This document shows positions 740-62,800 of a stretch of DNA of 64,000 nucleotides, piece by piece. Where the stretch lies: positions 1,947 through 65,946 of the IMG/VR virus record IMGVR_UViG_3300015202_000005. The stretch is one strand, 5' to 3'. This stretch comes from a virus. The notes beneath the pieces are model-generated. The model made no database searches. It was not told the DNA's origin and worked only from the letters and a program-made list of their open reading frames with translations. Position 1 is the first letter of the stretch; the number at the start of each line of letters is the position of its first letter. A program made the translations under genes and the position numbers.

Positions 740-1594
740 CTATTTTAATTTATTATAAGTTCCCTCAATTTGTAAACAAACTGATTCTAGTGCTTTAGCA
801 TCTACTGTTGGATTTACGTATCCTAGTCCTCTTAATTCATTAATATCATAAATATTGTTTACATAAGGAAACAATGTAATAGGGGTATTTGATATATTAT
901 AACTGTATACTTTTGCTGCTATATAATAACGTTCCATCATTATATTAATAACACTAATTTGTGGTATTGTTAAATAGTAATAATCTAAACCTAATAATAA
1001 AGACAAAGCATCATTTGCAAACTGTTGTATAAATGTAAGATTTATACTACCTATAATATTGCAATTATACGCTGTTCTTCCACTTACAGGGAGAAACGAA
1101 TATTGTAATAATGCTGTATCTGTAAATACACTATTTATATAACTAATACCATTACTATAAAAATCTGTTGTTATACTTTCTACATTTTGTACTACACAAT
1201 CATGTGTATATAACACAAGGGCTTCGTTATTAATATATGTTTGATTTCTAATAAAAAATACATCACTATTAATATGTATAAATGGCAATGTTTCTGTTAA
1301 TATACTTGTTAGTTTAGCTATTAATGGTAAACCATTTGGAACAGCATTACCATTACGTAATAACAATGAATCATAAACATTATGTATTTCATCAAACGCT
1401 ATAAAACCCTGATTAACAAATCTCTCAATACCTGCTGTATCTGAATAAAATACAGTTGTACCAAAATGTCGCTTTGCTTGCATTACAGCAAGTTTAAAAC
1501 TTACTAGTTCATAATATGAAGTAGTATAACCATCAGTAGCCAATGCTGGATTATTAGTTATTGGTTGTGACCAATATGTAAATACTGCTCTCAT
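740..1594 (-). CDS. DUF6734-like (glycosyltransferase-like) protein
   Basis: Motif order FTYWS...VFYSD..G...LAKL...PFIHINSDVF resembles the Bacteroidota DUF6734 family; the DxD position reads NSD. Confidence 0.5.
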   Translation of the reverse strand: MRAVFTYWSQPITNNPALATDGYTTSYYELVSFKLAVMQAKRHFGTTVFYSDTAGIERFVNQGFIAFDEIHNVYDSLLLRNGNAVPNGLPLIAKLTSILTETLPFIHINSDVFFIRNQTYINNEALVLYTHDCVVQNVESITTDFYSNGISYINSVFTDTALLQYSFLPVSGRTAYNCNIIGSINLTFIQQFANDALSLLLGLDYYYLTIPQISVINIMMERYYIAAKVYSYNISNTPITLFPYVNNIYDINELRGLGYVNPTVDAKALESVCLQIEGTYNKLK

Positions 1595-1599
1595 ATCAT

Positions 1600-3543: not shown

Positions 3544-4533
3544 CTATGCTGTTAAATTAATAGTATCAATAGTACCTTCTTGGCTACTTTCACCTACAAA
3601 TAAATTACCAAATAATGTTACTAAAGTTCCTTCAATAGCACTACCTGTTGGTACAAATACCTTGAATATTGCAACACCTACATTTCGTACATTTAATGGG
3701 TCAACAATTTCTTGTGACTGTTGAAATGTCCAACCTGTATATGTTGTACCAGCAACAACTAATGATTGTTCTTTAAACCAAAAGTTGTGAGCATAATAAC
3801 GGAAACTGTCTCCCTGTACTAGGAAGCCTTCCTGTTCTTCTAAAGCAACTTGAGTGCTTGTATTACGACCTGAATTAAATAATACAGAACCGTTAGTACC
3901 ATCTGTGTAAACACTTGCACTTGTAGAAATTCCACTAACTCCTACACCGTATACGCGATTATCCTTTGCTGTCAAAGTAATGCCTGTTGTAACACCACCT
4001 AATACAATAGCAGCTGCTGTCATATCACTATTAGTGTTAGCATTAATCATTGCAATCAGTCTGTCAAGAATTTTGTTTGACGTATCAGTTGCATAAGTAA
4101 CCACAGCATAACGACGTGGAATCGTATGAATTAAATAACTAGGTGTCTTTGAATAAATAGAAAAATCAAGTGTTTGACCATCTATAAATACAGATGGAAA
4201 ACCAAATGAACCTACACTTGTTGCAACATTACCAATTGTAATTACTTGAATTGCAGGAGCATGATACAAACTTTTAGTTTGTATTGGTGCGTCTTTCTTA
4301 ATTATTCCTGTTACTTTAAAGTTACCTGGATTTGCTGTTCCACAATATACTTTAAAACCTTTAGCATTAGCAAGTGCTGTATTTGTTGCACCAGCAGGAA
4401 TTAAAATTCCATCTGAATCAACTAAAGCAATTGCACCTGTATCTAATAACCCGACGTCTGATGCTACACTAATTGTACCACCACCACGTTTTGCTAAATA
4501 GCCCACACTCTGCGCAACTATAACTTGTTCCAT
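3544..4533 (-). CDS. putative auxiliary capsid / stabilisation protein
   Basis: 329 aa, Gly/Ala/Thr-rich; third gene downstream of MCP as in the conserved crAss-like gene block. Confidence 0.55.
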   Translation of the reverse strand: MEQVIVAQSVGYLAKRGGGTISVASDVGLLDTGAIALVDSDGILIPAGATNTALANAKGFKVYCGTANPGNFKVTGIIKKDAPIQTKSLYHAPAIQVITIGNVATSVGSFGFPSVFIDGQTLDFSIYSKTPSYLIHTIPRRYAVVTYATDTSNKILDRLIAMINANTNSDMTAAAIVLGGVTTGITLTAKDNRVYGVGVSGISTSASVYTDGTNGSVLFNSGRNTSTQVALEEQEGFLVQGDSFRYYAHNFWFKEQSLVVAGTTYTGWTFQQSQEIVDPLNVRNVGVAIFKVFVPTGSAIEGTLVTLFGNLFVGESSQEGTIDTINLTA

Positions 4534-4534
4534 A

Positions 4535-5589: not shown

Positions 5590-6492
5590 CTATAATTGTG
5601 AATATTTAACTCTTAATGTTTCTTTGGTTACGGCGTTTTCTGCTAAGTTTAACCACAATACAGCTTTATCTAAATTAGGAGCAATAGGAACATTATCATA
5701 CATAACAGATGTAGTACCTAATGGTCTATATAAGAAACCTACTCGTATATAACGTTCAATCATTGCTTTATCAGTTATACTTTTATCCTTAGCTATTTCT
5801 AAAAATGTCGTAGGTTGTTCTTCTGAAAATTTAGCAAGCTGAATACGTAATTCAGTAATTGTCCCTGTATAAGGTAAGCCGCCAAGTAATAGCACATCTT
5901 TAACTAATACTTCATCTCTCTGTATTTGCATACGTTTAATAATAGCCTCGTCTTTTAAATCTTGGCTTTCTTTTTCACGTTTAATCTGCTCTTCTCTACT
6001 CCATAAATAAGCACGTATTCTTCCACTTTTAGAAACGTCATCTTTTGAATTAGCTACCTCACCATACTTTAAACAGTAATGATATAATATATAGTGAAAA
6101 TAATCAATAGGAGTTCCTACTCTATCTTCTACATTTATATGTCTTGTACTAACATTTAATTCCATACCTCCATAAGGTATTGCAACTAAAAAATTATGCC
6201 AATATTCATCTAACTTACTATCCCATTCAATATGACTATTAGATACACCAACAACCTTTGGCATAAGACGACGTTCCTCTTCTTCACTAAATATCGTTCG
6301 ACCTAAAGGTCTGTTGCTAGTTCTAGATGCGTGAGCACCCCCTATATATACACGATAATCTTCTGCGGAACTAACAGACATTCCTACTTCTGGAAGTATT
6401 GATTGTCTGTGTCGTCTTAATAACCAAATTTTCTTTTCTTTTGTATAAGGATATTTAGTTTCTATTGCCACAACGGCTACTTTCTCTTCCAT
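5590..6492 (-). CDS. conserved crAss-like protein immediately downstream of MCP
   Basis: 300 aa; position; YILYHYCL..GEVA-type motif. Confidence 0.6.
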   Translation of the reverse strand: MEEKVAVVAIETKYPYTKEKKIWLLRRHRQSILPEVGMSVSSAEDYRVYIGGAHASRTSNRPLGRTIFSEEEERRLMPKVVGVSNSHIEWDSKLDEYWHNFLVAIPYGGMELNVSTRHINVEDRVGTPIDYFHYILYHYCLKYGEVANSKDDVSKSGRIRAYLWSREEQIKREKESQDLKDEAIIKRMQIQRDEVLVKDVLLLGGLPYTGTITELRIQLAKFSEEQPTTFLEIAKDKSITDKAMIERYIRVGFLYRPLGTTSVMYDNVPIAPNLDKAVLWLNLAENAVTKETLRVKYSQL

Positions 6493-8038: not shown

Positions 8039-9301
8039 CTAAACTATATTATTAAGTCGCAAATTGTCATAGTTTTTAGGATTGTTAATTCTTGTAGTTG
8101 GTATACTACTTTCAGTAGTAACCTTTGCTAAACGCCTACGCAGATTATCAACCTGTTGATTTTGTATTGCTTTTTTAACTACTGTATCTAAGTTTAAACC
8201 TTTAAACAAAAAGTAATCAATCTTTAATCTTTGTTCAGTAGCTAATGTCTCATACGCAGATATTGCTTTAGTCTTACCATTACCAGAATCTTTACCTATA
8301 AAATCAAAAAACGATTGACGCTCATTCTCTGGTATTGCAATATCTTCTAATTTGCCTTTCATTACTATTTCTCTTACACCTGTCCAATGTTTATCTGTAC
8401 TTTCTTTTAATCGCTGCACTTCATTAACACGTTCAGTTTCCTCATACTTAGTATTGTTTATGCTCCAATTCTTTAAACCATCAATAGCTACTTTAACTAA
8501 CTCTTTAGATTGTCCTGAATCAATTGCCATTTTAATAAAAGCATTTGCAGATGTTTCATCTAAATTTGATACTTTAGTATAATACTCTAATAAAGCTAGT
8601 TTAACTTGATTAGGATTAGCTTCGTCTATTTGTAAGTTAGAATAGTCTGGTGTTTGTAATTTTGATTGATAAAAATCTAATGGGTTTTTCCCTGTAATAA
8701 TATGCTCCATCAATGCCTTAACTTCTGGCATCTGTTCTATCGTTTGCTTAAACTTAGTTTCATAAGATTTATTAGCAACATATTCTGTTAATGCTTTTAT
8801 ACTTTCACCATCATCTGTAAACTCTAAACTTGCACCATTTGCATCTTTAAAGTCAAAACCCTTTTCTGTATAATAATCTAATACAGACTTTAATCTAGAT
8901 TCTGGTTTTAATACAATAATACCATCTTTATCTTCTGTATAATCGCCTTTCTTTTTTACTATTGTACCATCTTCTTGTACTAAATCTCCTGTGTCTTCAT
9001 TAATATAGTAAACAGGTTCAATAGCTTTTGCTTCTGTATTTACTTGTTGTTCAGTAGGTCTGCTTTGTAACTCTTTAAGTTTTTGAATACCAGCTGCTTT
9101 ATCTAATATTACATTACCTGTATTATTAATTAAATTACCATTAACATCAAAAACAAAACCTCCTAATTCCTTTGCATTATCACTAGTATACATTGCTGTA
9201 TCAAAACTTTCATTTTGTGTTACAACAGGTTGTGCTAATGGAGTTGCTTCTCTATGTGCCGAACTTAACGATAAGTTATCGTAACTTGTATCACCTGACA
9301 T
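8039..9301 (-). CDS. putative capsid scaffolding protein
   Basis: Between portal and MCP; acidic, D.NGN/DG turn repeats, helical C-terminus. Confidence 0.6.
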   Translation of the reverse strand: MSGDTSYDNLSLSSAHREATPLAQPVVTQNESFDTAMYTSDNAKELGGFVFDVNGNLINNTGNVILDKAAGIQKLKELQSRPTEQQVNTEAKAIEPVYYINEDTGDLVQEDGTIVKKKGDYTEDKDGIIVLKPESRLKSVLDYYTEKGFDFKDANGASLEFTDDGESIKALTEYVANKSYETKFKQTIEQMPEVKALMEHIITGKNPLDFYQSKLQTPDYSNLQIDEANPNQVKLALLEYYTKVSNLDETSANAFIKMAIDSGQSKELVKVAIDGLKNWSINNTKYEETERVNEVQRLKESTDKHWTGVREIVMKGKLEDIAIPENERQSFFDFIGKDSGNGKTKAISAYETLATEQRLKIDYFLFKGLNLDTVVKKAIQNQQVDNLRRRLAKVTTESSIPTTRINNPKNYDNLRLNNIV

Positions 9302-9302: not shown

Positions 9303-11642
9303 TTATTTATTATTTATTTGTGATTTCTGAATATTAATCTTTTGTTGTTCTAATCCTAGCTTTTGCTGTTTTTCCGTTTCTGAAACTTGATTTTTTCTCA
9401 TTGTCTCAGATAACTTCGCAGCTTCTAAAGCTCTATTGTAATGACGTTGTATAATTTCTTCACTATCACCTATACCATCATGGTCTGCATCTCCTCCTGC
9501 TGCATTAAATGAATCAGCTAATATCAATGATTGTTCTGTCTTACCATCAGCACTTATTTGTGCCACTTTAATCATTGCATCAGTTTTCATCTTTTCACGT
9601 TCCATTGCAAAGTTCTGTAATGTTTGTTCGTGTGTCTGCTGTAATTTAGCTGCATCTTGTTGTACAGATTGTTGTATTTTTTCACCTTCTCTAATTAACT
9701 GTTTAATCTTAGAAACGTTAGTACAATCTACAATTTCAGCAATAGTCGAAGCAGGTACACCATTTTGTAACATAGGTTGAAACAACTCTTTAAGAGTATT
9801 AATCTTAGCTTGTTCATCAACACCATTAGATACGTGTACACTAAATTGACAATCCATATGTGTTGCACCATCTATATCTAACATACTACGGTCTCCTGTA
9901 CTAGTAGTAAACATTTCTTGTTTACCACCTATCCAAGCCATCTTACTGTAATCTAATAAACCATCTAATTCAACTTCTCTATATCTTTCAAACATAGCTA
10001 TCATTTCACGATTAGCTATTGCACTTCTAAATACAGCTTGTTCAGTTACAGACTTTCTATCAGATGCTTGTACTTCTCCATAACGTTGTCTATTCATTCC
10101 AACTACATCCCAAAACTCGTCTTTTATTTCTTTCATAAAAGACCACATCTCTTTCATATATTGACCTAATGATAAATCTATTTCTTTTATCGAGTTATAA
10201 GCAGCTAACGCCTTATCAGAACTTTCATCAAAAAACGCTATACTAAAAGCCGATATACTGTAAAACCATTTATCTGTGTCCCAACCTTTATCAGTAGGTA
10301 TTAAACCTAATGGGAATAGTAATAGTTTGTCTTTGTTTTTAGCTAACGTTAACTCAAATCTGTAATGAAATATATTGTATAATAACTGGTATGATAAACC
10401 TTTACTTACAATACCTTCAATCGCATCTTTAGTATAACCCCAATAAGCACCGTTATAAGGTAACTTACAAATAGATGTATTGTTTATTTGTGTACGTTGT
10501 ACTTGTCCTACTCCATACTTAATATAACATTTTTCATCTACCATTAAACTATTACCTACTCTCCATATTTCCCACCATTCATTTTCCCAAACCCATTGAA
10601 CATCTAAATCACCTTTATCAGTTTCAATCTTGTAAAACTCATCTACTTCAGTTTCGTTAGGTTGACCAGTTTCATCTATGTAAGTAAGAATACCGCGTTT
10701 ACTAAATGATTTCCAAACTATATGTTCTACTGTTATTAATCCTGATGCATTAAGTGATACTGTATTACCACCACGTAATTCATAAAAAGGTGAATTACCT
10801 AAACCTAATTCTTTATTTAATGTTAAATAATCAATTTGTTCATCTGATAAATACTCTCTAAACTTATCTATTATTGTACTCATATTCCAATAGTATCTAG
10901 CTACTATTGCTTCTGCATCTTCTGCAAACTGTGAAGATGTGTCCCAACCTGCTACTGATATTTGTTGAGGATGTATTACCTCAAATGTAACGTCTTTATG
11001 ATTTATGTCTTTAAATGAAAATGACCAACCACATATTAAAAAGTTGTAGTATAATCTTTGAAATTTAGATTCTAAATCTTGTGTACTATCTATATACTCT
11101 AAAGCCGTTTGTCCTCTAATAGCACGTTGGTCTAAATATGGTGTTTCTAATTCTTTCTCTAATTCTGATTTATCAACTTGTTGTTGTGCCTGTACATCAA
11201 ACCCGTATTTCTTTAACTCCGATAAATACAATTCCGTAAGATGTTTTTTTACTAAGTTATCGTGATAATCTTTCTGTAAAGACAATACATCCGAGTTGTT
11301 AACTGCTACCGATATTGTATTAGGGCGTTCTTTACGTTCTCCTAATAACCTAACTATAACAGGTTTAATTATATCATAGTTTCTTAACTTAGCAGGATAA
11401 TCCTTTTTGGCATCTCCCTGTACAGCATAAGGATTAGTTACATATTCATAATCATCTGGATTTATTAATCCTTTTGCTATATCAAAATCTGATTGAATCC
11501 TTAAATGTTCTGTTGATAAAAAACCATTGTATTGTACCCAATACAAAGCATTTTCTTTTATCCAAGCTGGTACAGATGCTCCATTTACTAATTCTAATTT
11601 CTTTGCTAATGGTAACTTCTGTAACGGTTTTATTGTACCCAT
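9303..11642 (-). CDS. portal protein
   Basis: 779 aa downstream of TerL; KLRNYDIIKP..LLGE motif; coiled-coil tail with DADHDGIGD. Confidence 0.88.
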   Translation of the reverse strand: MGTIKPLQKLPLAKKLELVNGASVPAWIKENALYWVQYNGFLSTEHLRIQSDFDIAKGLINPDDYEYVTNPYAVQGDAKKDYPAKLRNYDIIKPVIVRLLGERKERPNTISVAVNNSDVLSLQKDYHDNLVKKHLTELYLSELKKYGFDVQAQQQVDKSELEKELETPYLDQRAIRGQTALEYIDSTQDLESKFQRLYYNFLICGWSFSFKDINHKDVTFEVIHPQQISVAGWDTSSQFAEDAEAIVARYYWNMSTIIDKFREYLSDEQIDYLTLNKELGLGNSPFYELRGGNTVSLNASGLITVEHIVWKSFSKRGILTYIDETGQPNETEVDEFYKIETDKGDLDVQWVWENEWWEIWRVGNSLMVDEKCYIKYGVGQVQRTQINNTSICKLPYNGAYWGYTKDAIEGIVSKGLSYQLLYNIFHYRFELTLAKNKDKLLLFPLGLIPTDKGWDTDKWFYSISAFSIAFFDESSDKALAAYNSIKEIDLSLGQYMKEMWSFMKEIKDEFWDVVGMNRQRYGEVQASDRKSVTEQAVFRSAIANREMIAMFERYREVELDGLLDYSKMAWIGGKQEMFTTSTGDRSMLDIDGATHMDCQFSVHVSNGVDEQAKINTLKELFQPMLQNGVPASTIAEIVDCTNVSKIKQLIREGEKIQQSVQQDAAKLQQTHEQTLQNFAMEREKMKTDAMIKVAQISADGKTEQSLILADSFNAAGGDADHDGIGDSEEIIQRHYNRALEAAKLSETMRKNQVSETEKQQKLGLEQQKINIQKSQINNK

Positions 11643-11655: not shown

Positions 11656-13986
11656 TTAAGAAGTCTTACCCCACATTCTACTAAAGAATTTATCTTTGCT
11701 ACTATGTGTCGGTTCTATTAATATACTATCTGTTATTTCTAAGTCTTGAAACTCTCCAACTATCATAGCTGAAATACAATCAAAATTACCTTTCATATTC
11801 CAACGTAAACTTTCTCTTAGTAACCTTTTACAAGAAATTGTATCTACAAAAGCAATATCATGTCCATTTACATCTTTACCTACAACTCTACCAAAATGGT
11901 CACATAACATCTTTGCACCTTCCATCTTTCTTCTTAAATTTTTACCTATTGAAAATCCATATACACGACCTGTCTTTCCACTTATCTCTTTTAAACTTGA
12001 CATCTCTGGTTCTTCCTGTAACCACTTAGTCGCATTGTGTTGTTTAAAATAAGGTGCTACTTGTCCTCTATCATTTTCAAATAACATCTTAGCGTTGTAA
12101 TACATACACAAAAGTAATAGTTGTTCGTTGTATTCATCTGTTGTTGCAGGTCTTCCAATCCATGACGCTACTATACGGTCTCCTTTTGACGTTGTTGCAT
12201 TATTTGTCCTTTCGTGAACGTATGCTACACCTAATGAGCTAACTGATGAAATATCATCTATGTCTTTATCTGTCGCATAAGGGTCGTGTTTTACATAATA
12301 TAGGTTGCTCGGAGTATACTGTCTATACTCTTCTTTATCCTTTTCAGTTAACTTAAACGGAGATTCATACTCAATTATACAACCATGTAAATCATAACTC
12401 TTACCTAATATATCGTTTGTATCTGTAATAGGTAAGTGATACGCATACTCCTTAAATTCATCTAACGTCTTTAATCTAACTATACCTTTTAATACTTCTA
12501 ATTTACCATACCTTGCATATCCTTTATAAATAGGAGACGATAGTATATTAAGACGTGCTTGTATTTTGTCTGAATGTATTCTAAACAAATTCTGCGTACC
12601 TCTATTAAAAGCCTCTCTTGGAGTTATAGCACGTTCTGCAACCCACTTCATATAAGCACTTGCATTTGATTGTTCGTACTTTATAATCTTTCTTTTGTCA
12701 TAATCTATCTTTGCACTTTCTAAATCTGAATTACCAAACTTATCAATGTGACCTTCGTAATTTTGTATGTGACCAAACCATAAACCACAAGGTGTATTTA
12801 TTTGATTTTCATCAAATGTATTATTAAAAGGTAAACAGTTATAACCTGTTGGATTGTAGAATATTTCAGATAAACCTGCGTAGTCTGCATCAGCACTACC
12901 AACTGTTCCCCAATATGTAGATTGTCCTACTGTGTACCCACCTGATTCAGCTGTTGATGATGTAGCTTCTATTGTTTCTAATAAATTAGGAAACGAACCA
13001 CACTCCTCATATTTAATCTTACGTGCCATCTTACCACGTGCACAGTCTGGATTATCAGCTGCTGATAAAGCTAATACCTTACTTAAATAACCAAATTCTC
13101 CTGACTGTCCTCTATATCTATAACCAAACTTTAATTCTGTTTCATTCTCTGTCAACCTTCTTTTATTCCAATCTGTATGTAAATTAATAAAATCACTGTA
13201 CTTATAAATCATGTTCATTATCCCATCACCTTTAGTCATGTATTTAGAATCATGCGCTATTAGTAATACAGTAATTTGTTTATTTAAATCAATCTCATCA
13301 AAAGCATCCCATGCACCTATATACGAAAAACCTTTACGACGGCTTTTACCTACTGCTATATCTAGTCCTATGTTTTCTGCAAACTTCATAGCTAACCAAG
13401 TATGATAGTGACCATCCCAAAAGTCTGGAAAATCATACGTAATCTCAGCCGTTGTTTTATCTGATAAACCTTTAAAAAACATACGTAATGTCTCTTCTGA
13501 TTTATCTTTATTTTGTTGGTCAAAGCTATTTAACGTTGCATCTCTTACACTAATCTCGTCTGGGTCTTTAGTTCTAGTAATAGGTGCAAAGTTTAAAAAT
13601 CCTACCATTTTTGGAGGTATCCATAAGTTTTCAATATCTGTATCTGAATTACCGCCACTTTCATCTTTCCATTTTACAGGTAAAAATATACCGTTTCTTC
13701 TTCTATATTCCCACCTATCCCAAAACTCTTTATATGCTCTAGGATTCTTGTTAGCATCTATACTATGATACGTACCATATTTTTTATGATAAATTGCTGC
13801 ATTACTTATTAAATGGGTATTTATAAATTTAATGTTTTCCCATTTATACAATTTAACTTTATTAGTAGTATCAAATGTATTAGTATAATAATCCTTTACC
13901 CATTTATAACCATCAATTATATGTTCTTGCATATATTGTTTTTCTTCCGAAAAGGTCATATTATACATTAACCTGTTGTTTGACAT
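11656..13986 (-). CDS. terminase large subunit
   Basis: Walker A-like GKSRRKGFSY, Walker B-like KYEECG, nuclease motifs HDPYATD, LFENDRG, GNFDCISA. Confidence 0.9.
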   Translation of the reverse strand: MSNNRLMYNMTFSEEKQYMQEHIIDGYKWVKDYYTNTFDTTNKVKLYKWENIKFINTHLISNAAIYHKKYGTYHSIDANKNPRAYKEFWDRWEYRRRNGIFLPVKWKDESGGNSDTDIENLWIPPKMVGFLNFAPITRTKDPDEISVRDATLNSFDQQNKDKSEETLRMFFKGLSDKTTAEITYDFPDFWDGHYHTWLAMKFAENIGLDIAVGKSRRKGFSYIGAWDAFDEIDLNKQITVLLIAHDSKYMTKGDGIMNMIYKYSDFINLHTDWNKRRLTENETELKFGYRYRGQSGEFGYLSKVLALSAADNPDCARGKMARKIKYEECGSFPNLLETIEATSSTAESGGYTVGQSTYWGTVGSADADYAGLSEIFYNPTGYNCLPFNNTFDENQINTPCGLWFGHIQNYEGHIDKFGNSDLESAKIDYDKRKIIKYEQSNASAYMKWVAERAITPREAFNRGTQNLFRIHSDKIQARLNILSSPIYKGYARYGKLEVLKGIVRLKTLDEFKEYAYHLPITDTNDILGKSYDLHGCIIEYESPFKLTEKDKEEYRQYTPSNLYYVKHDPYATDKDIDDISSVSSLGVAYVHERTNNATTSKGDRIVASWIGRPATTDEYNEQLLLLCMYYNAKMLFENDRGQVAPYFKQHNATKWLQEEPEMSSLKEISGKTGRVYGFSIGKNLRRKMEGAKMLCDHFGRVVGKDVNGHDIAFVDTISCKRLLRESLRWNMKGNFDCISAMIVGEFQDLEITDSILIEPTHSSKDKFFSRMWGKTS

Positions 13987-16033: not shown

Positions 16034-16690
16034 TTATTCTCGGTTATAAGGATTGCCACCACCAACTACTTCTATCTTTTTTTGTTGTTCAGTACGCATC
16101 CTATTTTCTAAAGATTCAATTTCTGATAATGCTTTTTCTAATTTAGCAGGTGCTTCAAGTAATACTTTACTTGCATTTGCTAATACAGTATTTAACAATT
16201 CTTCCTGTGTTATAATTTGGTCTAAAGCATCTGGTTGAGCAGATGTAGCTTCTAAATTTAATTTAACTAAAGTATCATTATGTCTCTCTACTTGTTTACC
16301 TAAGTTTTCATAATACAATGCTGTATTTCTTAATCCTCGTTTTAATGCAATTAATGCTTTAGCTGTTGGACTATAATCTTGTTGTATCTTAATATATTTA
16401 TCAACAGCTCTTTTTATCAGTTCATCAGCTTCCCATTTTACAGGGAGTTCACAAGCCTCCTTAGCTGCTAAATTTCTTTCTTTATCACTTAAATTTACAA
16501 ACTGATTATTGTCTGACCAATCAGCCATATAAAATATATACTCAATCTCTTTTATAAAATTGATACGTCTTTCGTTTAATACAACTTGTCCTTTTCTCTT
16601 TACTACTTCTCTTATTTCAGTTACATAAAATATACTATCTAAATTAATTTCTATGCTACCTGTTGCTTTATTGAACTTGATAAGTTCCAT
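16034..16690 (-). CDS. conserved helical hypothetical protein
   Basis: 218 aa with coiled-coil C-terminus, in the conserved block upstream of TerL. Confidence 0.6.
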   Translation of the reverse strand: MELIKFNKATGSIEINLDSIFYVTEIREVVKRKGQVVLNERRINFIKEIEYIFYMADWSDNNQFVNLSDKERNLAAKEACELPVKWEADELIKRAVDKYIKIQQDYSPTAKALIALKRGLRNTALYYENLGKQVERHNDTLVKLNLEATSAQPDALDQIITQEELLNTVLANASKVLLEAPAKLEKALSEIESLENRMRTEQQKKIEVVGGGNPYNRE

Positions 16691-24046: not shown

Positions 24047-24168
24047 TTTATAACATCACTTCTCCCCATAAGCAGGAGTTCTTAATAAATCAACTAATCT
24101 ACTTAGAACTCTTACTTACAGGGAGACACCCAGACTGTACTTTTTCAGTTTTAACCCAGCAATCTTAA
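24043..24168 (+). CDS. micro-ORF, 41 aa
   Basis: MIYNITSPHKQEFLINQLIYLELLLTGRHPDCTFSVLTQQS; ATGA overlap. Confidence 0.35.
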   Translation: MIYNITSPHKQEFLINQLIYLELLLTGRHPDCTFSVLTQQS

Positions 24169-35347: not shown

Positions 35348-35926
35348 ATGGAAATACAACAGCAAATTAATCTGTTAATTAAATATGAAATTGATGAACG
35401 TCAATTATTGTTTCTTAATATATTATACAACTTTTCTATTAATGAAAAATTAAATAATATAGACACATTAATAAATCATCTTGGAGTTTCCTCTTTACAG
35501 GGAAACAGGAAAGTATTAAGTTCGTTACAACAACGTAACGACCTTATAGAAAAAGGCTTACTTAGAGCTAATACAATAACTAACAGTTATTCGTTAACTG
35601 ATTTATTCATTAGTGAACTAGAAAATAAGCGAGAATTAATACAAGACATCTGGGATATATACCCAGACTTTGGACTTATTAAAGGTGTGAAAATTCCACT
35701 AAAAAACGCTAATAAAGAAGAAGTAGGAAAAATTTATCTTAAGAATATTAAAAGTTCAAGAAAAGAACACTTAGAAGTAATTAAAGATATTCAATATACT
35801 CTTGTTAATGAACCTATTGTTTTAAATATAAAGAACTTTATAGTATCTGAACTATATTTATCTTATCGTAAACAAAGAGAAGATAAACCTACTACTAATA
35901 TATTAGTAAACGACGAAGATTTATGA
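35348..35926 (+). CDS. hypothetical protein upstream of the replicative helicase
   Basis: 192 aa, IWDIYP motif. Confidence 0.65.
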   Translation: MEIQQQINLLIKYEIDERQLLFLNILYNFSINEKLNNIDTLINHLGVSSLQGNRKVLSSLQQRNDLIEKGLLRANTITNSYSLTDLFISELENKRELIQDIWDIYPDFGLIKGVKIPLKNANKEEVGKIYLKNIKSSRKEHLEVIKDIQYTLVNEPIVLNIKNFIVSELYLSYRKQREDKPTTNILVNDEDL

Positions 35927-39665: not shown

Positions 39666-39699
39666 AAGCCTGTATGCAATATGTGTACAGGCTTTTTTT
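39666..39699 (+). terminator. intrinsic terminator
   Basis: AAGCCTGTATGC-AATAT-GTGTACAGGCTT plus T-run. Confidence 0.8.
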
Positions 39700-39715
39700 A
39701 TATCTAATACAACTT

Positions 39716-41271: not shown

Positions 41272-42103
41272 AATACCACAATACATTCGTTCTATAAAAA
41301 TAGCTAATAGTAGAAATGCTATTTACTACGAATGTGGTATAAATAGAGAAGTTTTACTTAAAAAAGGTAAAAAAGTAAAACAACAATATTTACATAATCA
41401 CGCAAAAACATTAGTAAAAGCAGGTAAAACTTTGTTTTATATTTATGACTTTGTACCTGATAAATATACAATAGGTATATATAAAGGCACAATATTAGTA
41501 GATTGGCTATTGTCCTATACTCATGTAAGCACTAATGCTGGTGTTAGTTTTGTAAGTTATAAAGATAAAAATGTTAAATTTAGAGTAATAGATATAGTAA
41601 CTAAAAAGCCTGTTATTGTAAACGAAAAAACAGTCGGTACACCTAGACATAAAATTATATCTGGACAAGATATATACAATGGAACTATTCGACCTGAAAT
41701 GCGTGCATCTATTATGCAAGCAATTAAAGAGGATTATATTAGTAAAATGCCAATTCTCCCTGTAATAGAGAAGTCCTTGCTACCTTGCTTAATTCAATTA
41801 ACAGTATATGACGTTATTGGAGATGGTACTTGGGATATTGATAATAGAAGTTTTCTTTACAGTAAAGCATTTAACGACTTAATGTGTAAAGGAACAACAG
41901 GTAAAAAGAATGGTAATAAACTACCAATTAAATACTTTACACCTATACTTCCTGATGACAATGTTAAATTTGTAACTCAAGCAGGTGGTGCTAGATTTAT
42001 AGAAGTAGAAAAAGAAGAAGAAAGAAAACTAGTATTTTCTTTTTATAAAGACAATTATGTACCACAATTTAAAATTAATAAACAACAAAAGTTATGGGGT
42101 TAA
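41240..42103 (+). CDS. RusA-like Holliday junction resolvase
   Basis: WDIDN...KAFNDL...ILPDDN pattern. Confidence 0.6.
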   Translation: MNMENPFLVVEIPQYIRSIKIANSRNAIYYECGINREVLLKKGKKVKQQYLHNHAKTLVKAGKTLFYIYDFVPDKYTIGIYKGTILVDWLLSYTHVSTNAGVSFVSYKDKNVKFRVIDIVTKKPVIVNEKTVGTPRHKIISGQDIYNGTIRPEMRASIMQAIKEDYISKMPILPVIEKSLLPCLIQLTVYDVIGDGTWDIDNRSFLYSKAFNDLMCKGTTGKKNGNKLPIKYFTPILPDDNVKFVTQAGGARFIEVEKEEERKLVFSFYKDNYVPQFKINKQQKLWG

Positions 42104-49100: not shown

Positions 49101-50799
49101 CTGTTAATGTTTGTATTAAATCATCATCTGCTGAATCAGCTCCTAATAAATAAGTAGAAGCCCAACTAATATCTCTACTACCTTTTGTTAATAAATCTAC
49201 ATAATGTTTTGATTCATCTAAGTAAATCTTATCACGCATTGCATCAATTTGATTATTAACAGCTATTGCTCTATCTTTTAAAAACTGGTCTCTGTTATAA
49301 CGTTTAGATAAACCATCTAATTGAACAATAGTTCCTATTTTTTTATCATTTTCTTTATCATACTTTGTTTCTAAATCTCTACGTGCTTCAGCTTCTTTTC
49401 TACCTCTACCCATTCTAGCTAATCTATCTCCTAGATTTAATTTAGCTAATTCTATTGTATCTAATTTAATTTTAGTAATACGACCTTGTAATTCTTTTAA
49501 TGTTTCTAACTGTCCTGCATCTTTAATAAAATCTTGTAATTCTTTATCCTCAATTACTTCTTTTTGTATTTCTTGTATTATTTCATAAGACGATAAATAG
49601 TTTAATAGCTTCTTTAACGTTTTCATTGATACAGTTTCTACATCAATTTCATTGTTGTATATTGGGTTTTTTATATCAGCAATTCTTTGTTCTAATGCTG
49701 TTATATTAGAATAACTGTTTTCAAGAAACTGTAAAAATCCTCCACGTAAATCCTTTTTAATTAATTCATTAACAGCTTCAATACCTTCTGCTTTTTTATC
49801 TTCTGGTATATTTGTTGAATTTTGAATTAAATTAATAGCATTTTTTCTGTCTTCTATTTTAGATATTACAGTGTCTAAAGCATCTTGTGTTCCTATAAAA
49901 TTATCATACGTTGCACTTATTTCATGTTCTTTAAAATACAATTTTAATTTAAGTGTTATTGTATTTCTAGCATCATGTATTATCTTTATCTGATTAGTTA
50001 TGTTTTTATCAATAAACCTAAAATCAGCTCGGTGTTGTGCATTTAATTCAGTACGTATATTTATGTTGTTGTATATCTTAGCATTTATTAAATTATGTGC
50101 TAATGTTTCTATTATATCTTTGTTAGAACCTAACTTATCAGCTATTTTACGGAAAAATGAATTAAGCCATAGCTGCCAAGAAGACTTTTTAGACTGTTCA
50201 GTAAATAATTGGTCAGCCCTTACTGATACCGCTGTGGTTAGTAATTCTTTGTTAAATTGACGCAAATCTAGGTCTGGGTACAATTTTTTCATATCAGATT
50301 CAAGTTTTGAACCAGAAAGTTGAGAAATCCCCTGCTGTATCATTTCACCATTATAAGGTAATGATTCAATTAGTACGTGACCTAGTTCATGTATTAGTGT
50401 TTCTTTCTTTTGTAATTCTGGGTTTATTGTTATAGTAAATGTACCATTACTATTCTTTATTTCACCTGGTACTGATAACTTTGCATCCTCCCTGTAAATA
50501 AGAGGAATATCTAGTTTAGCTAATTTGGCTTGAATTTTAGCAAATAGTAACGCATCTTTCCTTTTTACAGGGAGAACCTCATTTTCTGCATTTATAATTA
50601 AATTGTTATCTTTAATCCATTCTATTGTTGGCTCTTTATTATTATCTAGTTTAATTGTATTACCATACTGATTTTTAACAAAATCACTATTAGCTGTAAT
50701 ATAAGTATCTAGTGCAATTTTATGACCATACTCCTGTAATACATTATTGTATAATTCTGATTTCTCACCATTAGGTGCTTTATATTTACAATCTGACAT
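46198..50799 (-). CDS. large virion cargo/ejection protein with N-terminal zincin motif
   Basis: Start MSDCKYKAPNGEKSELY; ETLIHELGH at 50377-50391; directly downstream of the RNAP gene. Confidence 0.75.
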   Translation of the reverse strand: MSDCKYKAPNGEKSELYNNVLQEYGHKIALDTYITANSDFVKNQYGNTIKLDNNKEPTIEWIKDNNLIINAENEVLPVKRKDALLFAKIQAKLAKLDIPLIYREDAKLSVPGEIKNSNGTFTITINPELQKKETLIHELGHVLIESLPYNGEMIQQGISQLSGSKLESDMKKLYPDLDLRQFNKELLTTAVSVRADQLFTEQSKKSSWQLWLNSFFRKIADKLGSNKDIIETLAHNLINAKIYNNINIRTELNAQHRADFRFIDKNITNQIKIIHDARNTITLKLKLYFKEHEISATYDNFIGTQDALDTVISKIEDRKNAINLIQNSTNIPEDKKAEGIEAVNELIKKDLRGGFLQFLENSYSNITALEQRIADIKNPIYNNEIDVETVSMKTLKKLLNYLSSYEIIQEIQKEVIEDKELQDFIKDAGQLETLKELQGRITKIKLDTIELAKLNLGDRLARMGRGRKEAEARRDLETKYDKENDKKIGTIVQLDGLSKRYNRDQFLKDRAIAVNNQIDAMRDKIYLDESKHYVDLLTKGSRDISWASTYLLGADSADDDLIQTLTETLDSKDYDTQHVTDQAYRDYAGLFKDLQNKVKSSDVFTLYDKMLEHEWLHNEDGTITKNPLRRSQHIVNEYHSQFKLQYDELHRDYENKLGNSEFTDEDVQKAYSKYLKFKRENTVQQYNKEYTDVIDSLPIAERRLLKPILNKRKFILNKYAKQYINKKDVIFDSSVLPKTIRAIYDKNEAEFAKLLASNPIVNKNYNEYADLHSTFRPGYSRVKLRYANDVQYSDIDKPIDKWLNPQYTELLKEELKGGMQLNGLNEPTFIGSEEWKMYKTSLTGLQEDDKALPVWAKSNTDYRYRGGRITNTKLPSSQKENAERFGTEGVVGGLTQNIKNSFVRKTSTDYGGEQAGDTRESIADRTSVVASNEKGDTRFSVPIYFRYANEYENQSFDVPSLMVQNRWMATNYANKTDIKEDMEMARDLIGLREVPKVKSNGMFSGLNKLQQDLSGTRADVLEQSSQNVNQSNAYKLMTGIVENRIYGIKSRTNKQADRVTKLALNYTSQVFLGFNYLSAGVNYVAGTWNLRLQSAGGMDFNRKKLKAGRKIYAGDLLAVKQDAANEKGYQMFNLLRDKQNFIQRSRTNVLMEQLNIHQGNQPINRRYSADNMAKQYLNSDLGGFMHNAGEHAITGEIMYAILLDVKLLNEVGQYVTATGTTEDESKALTLNDVLKARNGVMTIDAPTHAGNLRMSEYNLPLNKQSLKVVSRKIADLRASSQGQYAESKTPLAKMYFYAKLVFSMRGWLPETYRQRLLGISTVGISRKDLKSEDMFYSRAKGHFQEGTYTSAIRASVELTKTVYAIRKELWYNKARLTQLKNAYGDVMNEYSRMEVANIRRACWELGSIITLAVLSEVFAHFRKELPKDGIVRPTSYFLLFLAMRMRNELLGYINPLEQWRNVKSLSASMDIIDSVGKFTEQLIHPLEVYKTGKLKGHYKLMNKFNHAFPYINQINRNVEDTYGYLIGDKSKTQ

Positions 50800-53800: not shown

Positions 53801-56800
53801 TCTTCTTTTATTTTAGTATTTTTAAACTTAGTAATTAAAGCATCAGAAATTAAAGTTACGTGATTACCATTTATTTTTTGAACTGTTACATTATTAGTAA
53901 ATAATGATGTAAGTACAGCTTCTAATTTATCACTTAATCCTCCATTAAATAATGGTACTTTAAATCTGCCATCTTTTATTTCAAAACCTTTTAACGTATC
54001 TTCTGGTATACCTTTATCAATTGCTTCTTTTATTATTATATCACGTAGTTTATTTAAATTTTCAAATTTATAACCTTTTCTTGTACTTCTTGCACCTATT
54101 CTTTTAAGCAAATTTTGTTTACTTTCTACTATATTAGCAATCTGCATTTTATGTAGTTCATCTATTATAGCAGTTCCGTTTACTTTATTACCATTTAGTT
54201 CGTAAGTAGCTTTAGTATCTAAATTAGATATTGCAATCTTTTGAATTTGTAAACCATGTTTATTTACTTCATCTTTTAAATGCGATGGCACATCTAATTG
54301 AATACCCCAATCAGCTTCTGGTGTTTCATGTACTGTTACGTTCTTTGCAAAATCAGGTAATAAATTACCCAAATCATCTGTTAAATTTGAAGTAGGAAAC
54401 ATACCTACTTTTATTGCAGATTGAAAATATAAAGCATCTGCACCAACACTTTTCATATTATTTGCAATATCTTCTAACTGTGTTCCTTTTGTAAGTAAAG
54501 GTAACAACGTTACAACTGATGTCTTAATTTGCAATGACCGTACACTATTTGTAATTGGGTCGTATTTACGAGTATAACTAAAAGGTTTTAATACTTGTAA
54601 ATAACCATTTATACGAGCTAATTCATTTAACTCAGATTCGTTTAGCTTTTCAGCATTTTCAAACTTTGACCAAATAGCATCATACATTACATTCCATCTA
54701 CCTGCTTTTTTTATTAAGTATTTAGATTGGTCTAATGTAATATAACCTTGAGCATCAGCTGTATTAATTTTTAAATATGGCTCAATAGTACTACGTATCA
54801 ATTCTTCTTTTTTATTACTAGGTGTAAAGTTTTTATTAGTAATATTTTCACTAATTAACATATCTTTAAATTCCGGGTTTGTAATATCTAGACTTTCTTT
54901 TAATCCTGATACTATTGTACTTATTTCCGAACTTTTAAGTTCTATGTCTTTACCTATTATATACCTATGATTCTTTTTACCGTTATCTAAAGTAGTTTGA
55001 CTTGGTGAATCAGTTTGCTTAGAACGTTTGTTTGTATCTTTTACATTTTTATATTCTGATACGTTACCTGTAAAAAATCCTTTTTGTTCAGTTAAATGTA
55101 AGTAGCCATTTATAGCTATATCACTTATAAACTGTTCAAATTCTACCTTTTCATCATCATTACTATAATTATGTAATAACCGTACATTATCAGTATTTTT
55201 CATTTTACTAATAATAGGTTGTAAACTCTTATATCTATTAAACGTATCAGTAACTAACCAATTAGTAAAACTATTTACATAGTCAACTACTTGAGATGCT
55301 ACTTGTTGTTTTTTAGCTAAATCTTCTATATATAAATTATGTATGTCTTGACCTTGTGCATTAACAGCTTTAGTAAATTCAACAGCACCTTTTACTAGCT
55401 CCCCATTTTCTTCTTCTTTATCAAACATATTATGTTCTCCATTACCAAGCAGATGTTTCATGTTATGAAAATCAAACACACGACCTGTAACAAATACACC
55501 TTCATTTTTTATTGAATTTTGAAATAGTATAGGCTTACTGTTATTGTCAAGTTTTACATAATGATAATATAATTGTTGTCCTACAATATTATCTTTTTCT
55601 ACTGCTACAAATTTATGGTCATCTGTTTTGTTAATAGAATTGTCAATTAATTTAATAATTGCTTTTTCTCCCCTTATATCAGAAACCACGCCTTGTTTAC
55701 TAGAACTACGTACTATATCCCCAACAGTCATATTAGGTTTTACATCAAATGAATTTTCATTAAAATCTGATACATTATATACATTATTTTTATTAGGATT
55801 ATATGTAGCAAATAAATAGTTACGTGCATTTATCATTCTTTCTTTTTCTTGTAAATATGTATTATACATACTTCTAAAAGCTAGACTTGTAGTGTCGTTA
55901 AACTTTCTATTTTGTAACACGTATTTACCTTCCTCTATTACAGGGAAATGTACACCTTGTATAATCCAGTTGTTTGTACTATCACTTTTTATTTCAACAG
56001 GCATTGATACAAAACCTGGCTTACTTGTTAAATATGTAACTAATCTACTTAAATAAAAATCATCATCACTTTGCTTATCATATTGATAACCTTTTCCATT
56101 TACAGTATCTTTTAATCCATCTGTTTTATGAATATTAAAATTCTCTAAATTGTTAAGGTTTAAATCATTAATAGTTAATTCTGATAAATCTTTAGTTAAT
56201 CCATCAGCTGTTAATAACCCATTTTTATTAAAATAGTTACTATGTCTAAATGAACTATCTTGTAAATAGTCTTTTAATGTTTCTAATACTTCTTGTTTAG
56301 CTCCATCAACATCCATGTTATATACATCAAACACTCTTTTTATTTTATCAAAGAATCTTAAACTCCAACTTGGTTTGTTATAACTATAAACAAGATTACC
56401 ATTAGTATCTAAATAAGATGCTTCTTTACTATCATATAAAAAGTATGAATAAGAATCAGCTATTTTATTTAAATTACCACTATCTCTAAATTTTAAATTA
56501 GACTTGTTTGTAGTATCTGCAAACACAGTACTTTTTAAAAACTTAAGTTGTTTAAGTATATTATCATTAAAATAACTAATAATATCACTATTTCTATTAT
56601 CTGTTTTAGCTTTTATTAATACGTAGCTATTTAATATAGATTTAGTAATTTTAGCAGGTAAATCAAAACCTATTAATTTAGCAAGTTTTTGTGTTTCAAT
56701 TACAAGTTCATCTATATTTAATGTTCTTTCTCTTACTTGTTTATCTAATTTCTGTATTGCATCAGTAGCTTCAATTTCAGAAGCTGTGTTGTATTGTGAT

Positions 56801-59800: not shown

Positions 59801-62800
59801 TCTATATTATCTGCTGTTGATGCTAATGTTGGAATAAAAAATGAAGTATCAGGTAAATTATTAATTATAGTTTGAGCATTTGCACTTAAATCTGATTTAA
59901 CTACATCTCGTATAATTGATTTAGGTACAGGATTTTCTTCTTTTTTAATTCCTAATTCTTCTATTGCATCAATATTTATTTTTTGTTCAGCTTGAGATTC
60001 CCCTTTTACAGGGAAACCAACTTCTTTTTTAGGTCTGTCACGTTTCTTTTTTTCTTGTTCTACTGTTATTGGTTTAACAACTTCCATTAACTCTTCAGCA
60101 ATTGTAGACTTATCTTCTACTTTTTCTTTTACTAATTCTTCTTCCTGGTCTTTAGTAATTTTAGCTTGTTCCTCTTCTTTACTAATATTGTTTTCTAATT
60201 TATAAATTTCATCGTTAATATCGTTTAACTTTTTATTTATTTTTTCATTGTTTTTAAAATCAACCTGTAAATCTTCAATGTCATTTTTTAGATTTGTTAA
60301 TCTAATTACTTTTTCATCATTACTTTCTGTATTTTTTGCATTTTTATATGTTGCATTATGTGAATTAATTAAAGACTCTAAAGCATAATCTCCATTACCT
60401 ACCTCACTGTCTTTACTATCTATATTTTCCTCAACATTCTCTACCTTTTTTTCTTCAGTTTTAGCAGATGTATTTACTGTATCTGTACTTCTATTATTAT
60501 ATCTATTAGTAGCACTATCAATTATACGTCTAGCTTCTTCTTTTTTATCAATATCATAATCAGCAAATTCATCTCTTTTTTTATTTAAATATTCAAGATT
60601 TACTTTTCCTGTATTTTCAGCTGTTATAATATCAGAATGTAATTTATCAATTCCTTTAGTTTCTTCAACTGTTTTAATATTAGCTTGTTCTGCTCTAATC
60701 ATTTTGATTAAATTAAAACCTACTAATTTACTGTGCGCTTTCTCTGATATATTAGATAATGATTTTAAATAAGTAGCTTCTACTTTAGCTTTAACAACAC
60801 TACCGTCAACTCTGTTAATAACTTCATCCATTGTTTCATCTAAATATTTAGATGAATTGTTAGTATGGTAATCATCTAAAAACTTAGATTGCTCCTCTAG
60901 TTTTGCAATCTCATTATTAATCAGTTCTTTTTTCTCTGCATTTACTTTATTATCAGTCTTTACTTTTTCTAATTGTTGAATAGTAGCTCTAATACCTATT
61001 TTGTTTAAAGCGTTATTACCATTTTCAATACTTTGTAAATCCTGGTTTTCTCCCTGTAAAAGGGAACTCTTGGTTTCTGATAATTTAACTCTGTCTCTTA
61101 AATCATTATTATTTAACTCACTAATTACATATCTTTGTAATGCATAATCTTTTACAGATTGGTCTGCATTTTCTGATGCTAATTTGCTAGCATATTTGTC
61201 ATATATTCTTTGTGTAGTTTCTATTTTATGTATAAAATCATTAGCTATATTTGCATGGTCTTCATCTGTTAAATTCTGTTGAGTAGCATTACTTAATGTT
61301 TTTAATTCATCACCACCTTTACTACTTTCTAACATATCTTTTAACAACTCACTGTTACCATGTTTAGCTGCATTTAAGCTAAGACTAACTGCTAGGTTGT
61401 CTTTTACATTAGCAACACTAGTAGTAAAATCTTCATCAGTTATTTTGCCATCTTTCTTTTGTTGTACTAACGCATTAATATCTGCATTTGCTGTTTTAAT
61501 TGTAACTGCTCTATCTTTAATTTCATTAATACGTTGTGTTTCTGGTGTAACTAAATTAGGGTGAAACATTTTATCAACTCTACTTAGTATTTTTGGAGCT
61601 ACGCCACTAAATACCATACCACCTAATAAACCAAAAAATCCTGCTTCATGTGCTTTACTATCAGCCAAACTTTCTACATATTGATTTGTAATATCACTAC
61701 CAGTTATATTTCCTTTATTATTTAATTCTTTATCAGCTTTCTTTTCTCCTAATTTTGTAGAATAATAATTTTGAAATTCCTCTAAATACTCACTACCAGA
61801 TTCTACTGCTAAATATTTTGTATAATTACCTAACTGCTTTGCTCTACTTGCAGCTGTGTATTCTTTACCCATACTTTCAGCTTGTGCTTTAGCAATACCA
61901 TGTGTCATTTCTTCACTTTCAGAAGCTAAGTGACTACCTAGTAATCCTGCCATTTTATAAGCTGCAAATACTTCTAATACATCAAATACTAAGTTTACAG
62001 AGTTAGCTTTATAGTCAACAAATGCTGCTTTATTTGCCATAAATTTAGCAAATTCATCTTTACTAGTACCTACACCTCCACTTCTAAATTCTTTACCTGT
62101 TTCTGTATCTAGTAAATCTTGATATTCTTTATCATTTAATTTACCTATTTTGTCTTTAATCTTTGGGTATAAATCATTAAACTGTTGTCCAGATTCTTGA
62201 GCATTTTCAGCACCTCTCATTAATATAGAAGTTGCTAAAGGTTTTGCACCAATTTTAATATACTTACCTGTTGTATCAAAAGCGTTAGCTGCTGTTTCAC
62301 CCATACCATATTCTGCACCAGATTTAATTGTAAGTTTAGAAGCTAACGCAGCAGCACGTTCTTCTCCTAATGCAAGTTTACCTAATGCTCCAATACCTTC
62401 CCCTGCTTTTCCTAATACACTTAATAAACCATCACTAGCTATTAACATACCTACTGTACTACCAACACTAACTAAACCATTAGCCCACCAACCACTATCA
62501 GTCATATTCCATGATTTATCTGGGTCATGTACTGTAATAGGTGCTACACGTTTACCAAATTCATCTACTGATTCACCTGCTTTAATTAAAAAGTTATCAC
62601 TCCATAAATCATTTTCATTATGTATAATTGCAGCTTTTGCCATATTTTCAATACCACCTAAATATTGTAATGCTTGTGAACCTATTGTAGTAGCAAGTTG
62701 AACACCAAACCCTGCTATATTTTTTAATATATCAGTACCTTTATCAAATATATTTCTATCATTATAAACTTGGTCTCTATAACTATCTAAGTTTTCTACA

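Follow-up and report, generated by a model that had tools for sequence, protein, structure and literature searches.

The DNA analysed here is a 64,000-nucleotide stretch (the window; bases 1947-65946) of the IMG/VR contig IMGVR_UViG_3300015202_000005, a whole phage contig of 79,856 bp with a G+C content of 28.7% that is rated 98% complete and is referred to below as G000. The element in question is a short word, TTACAGGGAR, that recurs throughout this genome. The portal, TerL, and major capsid proteins, together with a virion-polymerase-like gene encoding 4046 amino acids, place G000 among the crAss-like phages, which rank among the most abundant human gut viruses, are widespread in the environment, and replicate and handle their DNA in ways that are almost unknown. 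G000 is a distant member of this group (its TerL is only 28-29% identical to those of gut crAss phages), and DNA that is near-identical or of strain level turned up in at least eight studies of ice and glacier metagenomes. Its replication block encodes DNA polymerase A, Dda/RecD-like (window positions 27392-28894), SNF2-like, and DnaB-like helicases, a DnaG-like primase (39674..40789, plus strand; phrog_12622 match, E 1e-39), and RecT-, RusA-, and Gam-like proteins, and a PD-(D/E)XK nuclease is encoded at 15007-16032. A megablast search with 20 kb of the window against GenBank phages gave no match, a search of IMG/VR with the major capsid protein gave a single distant fragment, and a TerL profile search of bacterial genomes gave no relative and hence no clue to the host. 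The relatives used for comparison were collected via TerL.

The window contains 13 exact copies of TTACAGGGAR, eight on the plus strand (1084, 16438, 24116, 31069, 35495, 50565, 55938, and 60006) and five on the minus strand (8688, 31795, 41756, 50488, and 61050), compared with 0.19 expected and a maximum of one in dinucleotide shuffles. This recount agrees with a preliminary description of the window, which had set the same 13 copies against roughly 0.3 expected and had proposed selection at the level of DNA. The whole genome holds 14 copies, a density of one per 5.7 kb. The shorter 8-mer TACAGGGA occurs 19 times (nine plus, 10 minus) where 1.4 copies are expected. The TTACAGGGAR word family is the most over-represented in G000 at each k from 9 to 12, while at k = 8 the top places go to the related words CAGGGAGA and ACAGGGAG, with TACAGGGA in third place.

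The codon-preserving shuffle that the preliminary description had suggested was carried out by shuffling synonymous codons inside each gene 1000 times, with all proteins kept. Under this null, TTACAGGGAR is expected 1.48 +/- 0.70 times (maximum 6) and was observed 14 times, and TACAGGGA is expected 2.5 +/- 1.2 times and was observed 19 times. Because the null yields far fewer copies, the excess is not due to protein sequence or codon usage. Ten of the 19 TACAGGGA copies are sense and use three frames (LQG, TG, and YRE), eight are antisense, every one of them read L/F/V-P-V, and one (24117) is intergenic. The variety of frames and orientations noted earlier therefore stands, and together with the codon null it supports selection on the DNA itself. 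The rare codons said to be forced by the word are also borne out: CTC accounts for 0.5% of leucine codons in G000, and five of the ten CTC codons in the genome lie in motif copies, which also contain GGG (4% of glycine codons), TTC (7% of phenylalanine), AGG (9% of arginine), and CAG (18% of glutamine). Among the 40 of 1071 variable positions listed for four glacier and ice runs, none fell inside the two motif footprints of the densely listed stretch, where about 0.7 would be expected, which says little about conservation at synonymous sites.

Alignment of the 19 copies gives an asymmetric motif, YTTCCYYWT-TACAGGGA-RA, with the columns Y-T-T-C-C-Y-W-T-T, TACAGGGA, and R-A and a total of about 20 bits. 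In the position table, T or C occupies positions -9 to -4 and is followed by T-TACAGGGA-R-A, and the offset of the upstream pyrimidine tract varies slightly between copies. At least six of the nine upstream bases are pyrimidines in 12 of the 13 exact copies, matching the 11 or 12 pyrimidine half-sites reported before. The words TTACAGGT, TTACAGGA, and TTACAGGC are not enriched in G000, which shows that GGGA belongs to the signal; for the same reason, occurrences of TTACAGGT at orthologous places in L124, the closest relative, are not counted as functional.

The preliminary description had read the site as a quasi-palindrome and had proposed a dimeric protein or a small hairpin. The DNA hairpins predicted for the sites have a mean energy of -2.2 kcal/mol, compared with -1.2 kcal/mol at shuffled sites, their stems and loops (5-11 nucleotides) shift register from copy to copy, and the corresponding dialects of the relatives G002 and crAssphage show no hairpin excess. 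As the hairpins are weak, variable in register, and not conserved in related dialects, the element is asymmetric, and the readings as a hairpin or as two half-sites of a dimer do not hold. What seemed an inverted repeat results from a pyrimidine tract facing a purine tract, with no fixed register. Hairpin promoters of the N4 type, which had been raised for the virion RNA polymerase and which have a stable stem of 5-7 bp with a 3-nucleotide loop at a fixed register upstream of early genes, do not fit either, given the weak and variable stems, the range of loop sizes, and the spread of copies across late genes. Iterons or origin repeats were likewise rejected, since the copies are dispersed over the whole genome and not clustered.

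The individual copies lie in genes of both orientations. The leftmost, TTCTTCCAC-TTACAGGGAG-A at 1074..1095 (plus strand), is antisense within the minus-strand gene 740-1594 and reads LPV. It is followed by two weaker minus-strand copies in sense, GTACAGGGAGA at 3809..3828 (VQG, with a CTTCC tract upstream) and ATACAGGGAC at 5860..5879 (YTG). The minus-strand copy ATTACAGGGAAAA at 8686..8707 (ITGK), in the gene after the portal, is without the pyrimidine tract and is the only copy that shares its codon with L124; at the matching sequence context the relative L125 has its own dialect word, CTTACAGGCAAAG (LTGK). Another weaker minus-strand copy of GTACAGGGAGA, at 11413..11432 in the portal gene, reads AVQGD where L124 reads AIKKD, so this site was made by non-synonymous changes. 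The near match CTTTCCATT-TTACAGGTAAA at 13664..13685 (plus strand, one mismatch) is of uncertain status because TTACAGGT is not enriched overall. At 16428..16449 (plus strand), CTTCCCATT-TTACAGGGAG is antisense within the minus-strand gene 16034-16690, about 250 nucleotides ahead of the plus-strand early block and oriented into it.

The sole intergenic copy, at 24106..24127 (plus strand), stands at the head of a stretch without coding sequence (24047-24575), which precedes an open reading frame (ORF) at 24576-25286 with weak similarity to RepL. Both G000 (24116, plus strand) and crAssphage (a back-to-back pair before gp42-gp43) thus have a copy or pair closely upstream of a gene that is RepL or resembles it. 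RepL as the reader of the word, one of the earlier suggestions, is unsupported: G000 has no Pfam RepL match, and ORF 24576-25286 is weakly similar to crAssphage gp43 (E 0.002).

Within the DNA polymerase A gene, a sense copy at 31059..31080 (plus strand; CTTTCCTAT-TTACAGGGAA, LQG; word at 31069) and an antisense copy at 31793..31814 (minus strand, LPV) form a convergent pair 726 nucleotides apart. Further copies lie at 35485..35506 (plus strand; GTTTCCTCT-TTACAGGGAAAC, sense, LQG) and 41754..41775 (minus strand; antisense, LPV). A back-to-back pair at 50.5 kb, with members 70-77 nucleotides apart, consists of a left copy at 50486..50507 (minus strand; sense, YRE, in a gene of 1533 amino acids) and a right copy, CTTTCCTTT-TTACAGGGAGAA, at 50555..50576 (plus strand; antisense, LPV). 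The gene encoding the 4046-amino acid virion RNA polymerase contains antisense copies read FPV at 55928..55949 and 59996..60017 (both plus strand, the latter ATTCCCCTT-TTACAGGGAA) and a sense copy read LQG at 61048..61069 (minus strand; GTTCCCTT-TTACAGGGAGAA).

An over-represented word of like build, peculiar to each genome, was seen in L124, L125, L126, G001, G002, G003, G004, G005, crAssphage, and crAss001, and these dialect words include TTACTGGGAAAG, TTCTACAGGGAAC, TTACAGGCAAG, and TACCGGGA. L124, whose TerL is 83% identical to that of G000, has TTACAGGGAG (three copies in 13.5 kb), L125 has YTTACAGGCAAAG (four in 9.8 kb), and L126 has YTTTAC(A/C)GGCAAG. The word of G001 is CTATTACTGGGAAAG (25 copies), that of G002 (IMGVR_UViG_3300020036_001753, the L132 record; 90.8 kb) is TTCTACAGGGAAC together with YTTATAGGGAG (29 combined), that of G004 (IMGVR_UViG_3300031953_000003, the L147 record) is WTAC(C/A)GGGA (19 copies), and that of G005 is TTACAGGG(G/T) (15 copies). 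The prototype crAssphage (Carjivirus communis, BK010471; L207) has the dialect word CCTCTACGGGG, and its C[TC]ACGGGG copies, 31 in number, take the forms TCCATCCTCTACGGGG[GA]GT and TCCTCCACGGGG. In crAss001 (MH675552; L222 and L223), the word CTTCTGGAG was found de novo, with 27 copies (10 plus, 17 minus) compared with about 1.7 expected. These copies cover the whole genome and lie in genes of both orientations, and CTTCTGGAG appears to be the signal's dialect in crAss001, which is culturable. Neither Cellulophaga phage phi14:2 nor Flavobacterium phage FPSV-S29 showed an enriched word or an excess of the generic pattern.

The preliminary description had proposed a motif search in relatives, and this revealed that they have their own dialects of the family while the exact word and its positions are mostly not kept. 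G000 and crAssphage have in common the pyrimidine tract, (T/C)AC, and G-run, the presence on both strands, the mostly intragenic placement, a spacing more even than chance (in G000, on the plus strand and with strands pooled), and the existence of lineage dialects. They differ in that the G000 dialect is AT-richer (TTACAGGGAR) with an extra base between TAC and GGG, and in that G000 belongs to an environmental (glacier/ice) lineage and shows no strand alternation. The papers searched on the word, on crAss promoters and transcription starts, and on nick motifs yielded no description of such a signal, consistent with the earlier remark that the motif is not a described one. New here are a distant lineage from glaciers, another five dialects from the environment, the crAss001 word, and the two crAss-like phages that appear to lack a word.

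The copies ignore gene direction in G000, G001, G002, and crAss001. We measured the evenness of their spacing by the coefficient of variation (CV), the standard deviation of the gaps between copies divided by their mean. Per strand, the CV is 0.43 and 0.31 in crAssphage (P = 0.001 and P < 0.0002), 0.40 and 0.49 in G001 (P = 0.001 and 0.007), 0.46 on the minus strand of crAss001 (P = 0.0005), and 0.50 on the plus strand (P = 0.03) and 0.65 on the minus strand (P = 0.14-0.15) of G000. When pairs at most 1.1 kb apart are joined, a grouping chosen after the data were seen, the 14 exact G000 copies merge into 11 loci with gaps of 4.1-10.3 kb and a CV of 0.27 (P about 0.0002). The first five exact copies of the window, from 1084 to 31069, follow one another at strikingly constant intervals of 7604, 7750, 7678, and 6953 nucleotides, and three weaker TACAGGGA copies lie between them across the structural genes, 2.0-2.8 kb from neighbouring minus-strand copies. 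Strands alternate above chance in G001 (18 of 24 switches, P = 0.015) and crAssphage (21 of 30, P = 0.016), and at random in G000 (nine of 18, compared with 9.5 under the null).

Regular spacing would also be expected of sites for an architectural protein that binds double-stranded DNA, such as an IHF/HU-like virion protein or a condensing factor, and that organises the genome for packaging, ejection, or replication compartments. G000 is most even if pairs are merged without regard to strand, and crAssphage, crAss001, and phi14:2 each have an annotated IHF-like gene among their structural or virion genes. However, crAssphage, G001, and crAss001 are more even per strand than pooled and strands alternate above chance; a reader of double-stranded DNA gives no reason for either property, and both therefore weigh against architectural sites. 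In addition, phi14:2 has an IHF-like gene but no word, and the motif does not match the IHF consensus. We consider this explanation improbable.

To compare positions between genomes, G000 sites were placed on G001 and G002 via protein alignments, with 15 sites mapped onto G001. Five of the 15 fall within 100 nucleotides of a site in G001 (P = 0.0013). The distances to G001 sites have a median of 407 nucleotides compared with 1085 expected (P = 0.006); for G002, the median is 423 compared with 1302 nucleotides (P = 0.007). A single position is exact: 41764 (minus strand) matches 24594 of G001, where a copy in the G001 dialect lies 4 nucleotides away and is likewise antisense. G001 also has a pair, at 11235 (minus) and 11321 (plus), in the place homologous to that of the back-to-back pair at 50.5 kb. 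Even relative to L124, the exact positions of G000 are mostly not conserved, with one of five copies at the same codon, and the alignment shows that G000 copies arise by point changes, some of them non-synonymous, with gaps of at most 1 nucleotide and essentially no insertion. Neighbourhoods are thus kept while individual sites turn over, as expected from selection on spacing or density and not on particular sites. We conclude with high confidence that the word is a selected, phage-private signal at the DNA level and a dialect of a family (pyrimidine tract, TAC, zero or one nucleotide, GGG) present in many crAss-like phages. Its copies occur on both strands and in any gene direction or frame, at a kilobase-scale spacing that is more even than chance, and their neighbourhoods are kept in relatives while the sites are replaced locally.

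It is very improbable that the copies are a host-derived genome word (an uptake sequence, a host Chi, or a REP-like element) or a repeatedly inserted miniature mobile element. Flavobacterium sp. ST-119 (G006, the record of L275) has a mild excess of TTACAGGGAR (43 copies, compared with five of the reversed control), but its density is one per 86 kb compared with one per 5.7 kb in the phage. In the 401 Bacteroidota genomes searched, there are at most 26 copies of TTACAGGGAG per genome. Insertion of a mobile element is at odds with the point substitutions seen against L124, and the copies are in frame within conserved proteins. Scans with a 14-mer and with patterns of 16-17 nucleotides (TTCC-N2-3-TTTACAGGGA in IMG/VR and TTTTACAGGGAGAA among bacteria) showed, among the matches listed, only isolated hits of the kind that chance would give.

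Close opposite-strand pairs are in excess in G001 (P = 0.03) and G002 (P = 0.001), which have three each (e.g., 40556/40596 in G001 and 46007/46043 in G002), and pairs tens of bases apart are also present in G000 (50496 minus/50566 plus), crAssphage (28084/28176), and L126 (4518/4545). These pairs bear on the possibility that the copies are sites of a phage nickase, which would introduce localized single-strand interruptions as in T5, phiKMV-like phages, and tf, either permanently in virion DNA or transiently during replication or packaging. The nick motifs of T5, phiKMV-like, and tf/LUZ24-like phages are also phage-private, intragenic words of 9-19 nucleotides with dialects and with roughly conserved positions in relatives, and their function is likewise unknown (PMC3517423). 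The tf word TACT/RTGMC has TAC in common with the family described here. However, the known nick motifs are confined to one strand (PMC3517423), whereas the G000 word is found on both (nine plus, 10 minus), and opposite-strand copies 27-94 nucleotides apart would produce double-strand breaks if both were nicked. The close pairs therefore argue against permanent two-strand nicking, a point that is new here. No nickase candidate is common to the genomes compared, and we regard nicking as rather unlikely.

Much the same low likelihood attaches to the idea that the copies are start, pause, or stop sites of the injected virion RNA polymerase (vRNAP), which uses single-stranded templates in phi14:2. 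The succession of a pyrimidine tract, TA(C/T)A, and GGGAG resembles the promoters of single-subunit polymerases, and T7-type promoters similarly combine TA(T/C)A, then GGGAG(A), with an upstream specificity region and a comparable copy number (17 in T7). The G002 variant CTCTATAGGGAG agrees with what we take to be the T7 promoter at 13 of 18 positions, and the G002 word YTTATAGGGAG is identical to its presumed core, TATAGGGAG. A vRNAP is universal in crAss-like phages, the copy at 16438 (plus strand) is oriented into the early block, and the intergenic copy at 24116 (plus strand) is sense. The vRNAP promoters of crAss-like phages are unknown (bioRxiv 10.1101/2020.03.07.982082). On the other hand, about 45% of the copies are antisense inside late genes, and initiation on both strands genome-wide would yield antisense and double-stranded RNA. 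In phi14:2, the only one of these phages whose early transcripts have been mapped, a common motif is missing (bioRxiv 10.1101/2020.03.07.982082), and so is an enriched word. T7-type promoters proper were rejected, as the copies are not co-oriented with genes (10 sense, eight antisense, one intergenic) and a T7-like polymerase gene (PF00940) was not found in G000, a weak negative given that the control genomes were also silent.

A word that is oriented by strand and indifferent to the direction of transcription suggests that its reader is encoded by the phage, acts on DNA, and probably tracks one strand. By analogy, the signal may be classed with the oriented, selected genomic words that are read by DNA-tracking enzymes. 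A Chi-like self-marker is one way to explain the copies: the word on one strand would attenuate a tracking helicase-nuclease (a phage RecD/Dda-like helicase with a PD-(D/E)XK nuclease, or a host enzyme), so that phage DNA is spared or sent to recombination while unmarked DNA is degraded. Like the Chi sites of RecBCD and AddAB, which a tracking enzyme reads on one strand, the G000 word is over-represented, oriented, and G-rich. Its G-rich part is the 3' half, it is independent of genes, and it occurs evenly on both strands at 5-8 kb, a spacing that resembles that of Chi in E. coli. Its roughly 20 bits would suit a word meant to be missing from host DNA, and G000 encodes the Dda/RecD-like helicase, the PD-(D/E)XK nuclease, and a RecT-like protein. 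Known Chi sites, however, are host-genome words of 5-8 nucleotides that are co-oriented with replication, whereas the G000 word varies between close phage relatives and is rare in the sampled Bacteroidota genomes. It is thus not host-wide, and the Chi- or KOPS-like host signal of the preliminary description is unlikely. The phage already encodes a Gam-like end protector, and homologues of the helicase and nuclease were not detected in crAss001 by tblastn, a search of low sensitivity. Overall, a Chi-like role seems unlikely, if somewhat less so than nicking.

We favour the reading that the phage replisome starts primed DNA synthesis preferentially at the copies, a reading to which we assign a probability of about 0.3; the alternatives discussed above and processes as yet unknown together outweigh it. 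Under this reading, a replisome with the DnaG-like primase and DnaB-like helicase would start synthesis at the copies, with the motif strand as template. The G-run on the 3' side would serve as a recognition element that is not copied, synthesis would begin opposite the pyrimidine of TAC so that the primer starts with a purine, and the pyrimidine tract would be copied into a purine-rich, stably hybridised RNA primer. Close opposite-strand pairs could then act as bidirectional start points, and the lineage dialects could have come about as the recognition domain and its sites co-evolved. We prefer this reading because the build of the motif fits primase rules, because the primase of T7 selects sites with a 3' flank, and because the even kilobase-scale spacing on both strands and the opposite-strand pairs resemble replisome start points. 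DnaG primases start at trinucleotide sites. In T7, the strong sites, about 26 in 14 clusters that lie 1-6 kb apart, consist of a pentanucleotide and a 10-nucleotide 3' flank that the primase's zinc-binding domain reads (PMC12839067). They share with the G000 word the strand-specific template sequence, the presence on both strands at kilobase scale, and the involvement of a non-copied 3' flank in recognition (PMC12839067), but they are degenerate and were found by binding assays, unlike an exact over-represented word.

The proteins common to the five motif-bearing complete genomes compared (G000, G001, G002, crAssphage, and crAss001) are few: the primase, the virion polymerase, the terminase, and the capsid, portal, and tail proteins. 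The first three of these are the only ones that read DNA sequence, and phrog_12622 primase homologues are present in all five genomes (gp80 in crAss001). The DnaG-like primase of G000 is thus a candidate reader of the signal. No outlier protein tracked the dialect when protein identities of G000 to G001 and G002 were compared. Phylogenetic profiling had suggested that the primase is missing from the word-less phi14:2, but this was a tblastn false negative and the primase is present. At the zinc-motif position, the phrog_12622 primases (window 39674-40789; L224:20971-22044; L223:35831-36826) read SP(L/F)R.D..P(S/T). The bacterial DnaG zinc-finger motif at this position is presumably CPFH.EKTPSF, and the metal ligands appear to be lost in the phrog_12622 primases.

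Several observations weigh against primed synthesis. phi14:2 carries the phrog_12622 primase (E 3e-157) yet has no enriched word, and FPSV-S29 is likewise without one; priming, among the roles first suggested, stays the leading candidate but is not matched by the distribution of the primase family. To our knowledge, characterised primases of the DnaG and T7 types need only 3-5 template nucleotides, and we know of none that needs as much as about 20 bits. With one site per about 7 kb on each strand, the copies are also sparser than bacterial Okazaki fragments usually are. The strands are not partitioned around a single origin, with strand order in G000 being random, and the evenness of G000 is clearest with strands pooled into loci, which suits a reader of double-stranded DNA equally well. 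More tentatively still, primed synthesis could be extended to many crAss-like phages of both gut and environment: they may set the starts of synthesis by a phage-private, strand-specific address read by a zinc-less DnaG-like primase or another part of the replisome, with both strands made in pieces of about 5-8 kb, opposite-strand pairs acting as multiple bidirectional origins, and address and reader co-evolving into dialects.

Whichever process it serves, the signal runs through essential genes at the cost of rare codons and even amino acid changes, in dialects that extend from glacier ice to the human gut. A conserved, selected signal of this kind would mean that an enzyme reads these genomes at fixed places, and identifying that reader would open a mechanism of replication or DNA processing to experiment. 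Since crAss001 is culturable and has its own 27-copy word, such a test is possible at the bench. The word may also serve as a signature by which to recognise and sort crAss-like phages in metagenomes, and the recoding or engineering of these phages would have to respect it.

Some dialects have additional features. The two words of G002 have opposite strand biases, with YTTCTACAGGGA present in 15 plus and four minus copies and YTTATAGGGAG in three plus and seven minus copies. G004 contains a second, unrelated word, GGAGATAAAGGA / TCCTTTATCTCC (7-12 copies, ratio about 80), beside its TAC(C/A)GGGA copies. In L126, the intergenic dialect copies at 4518-4570 and 7337-7362 share 13 extra nucleotides downstream, AAGTATTCATTTA, which suggests a longer element at intergenic sites. 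Finally, the glacier strains of G000 differ at window positions 43150-45800 by replaced segments and many small insertions and deletions, marking this as a hypervariable accessory region, and elsewhere in the stretch from 31 to 50.7 kb mainly by point differences.

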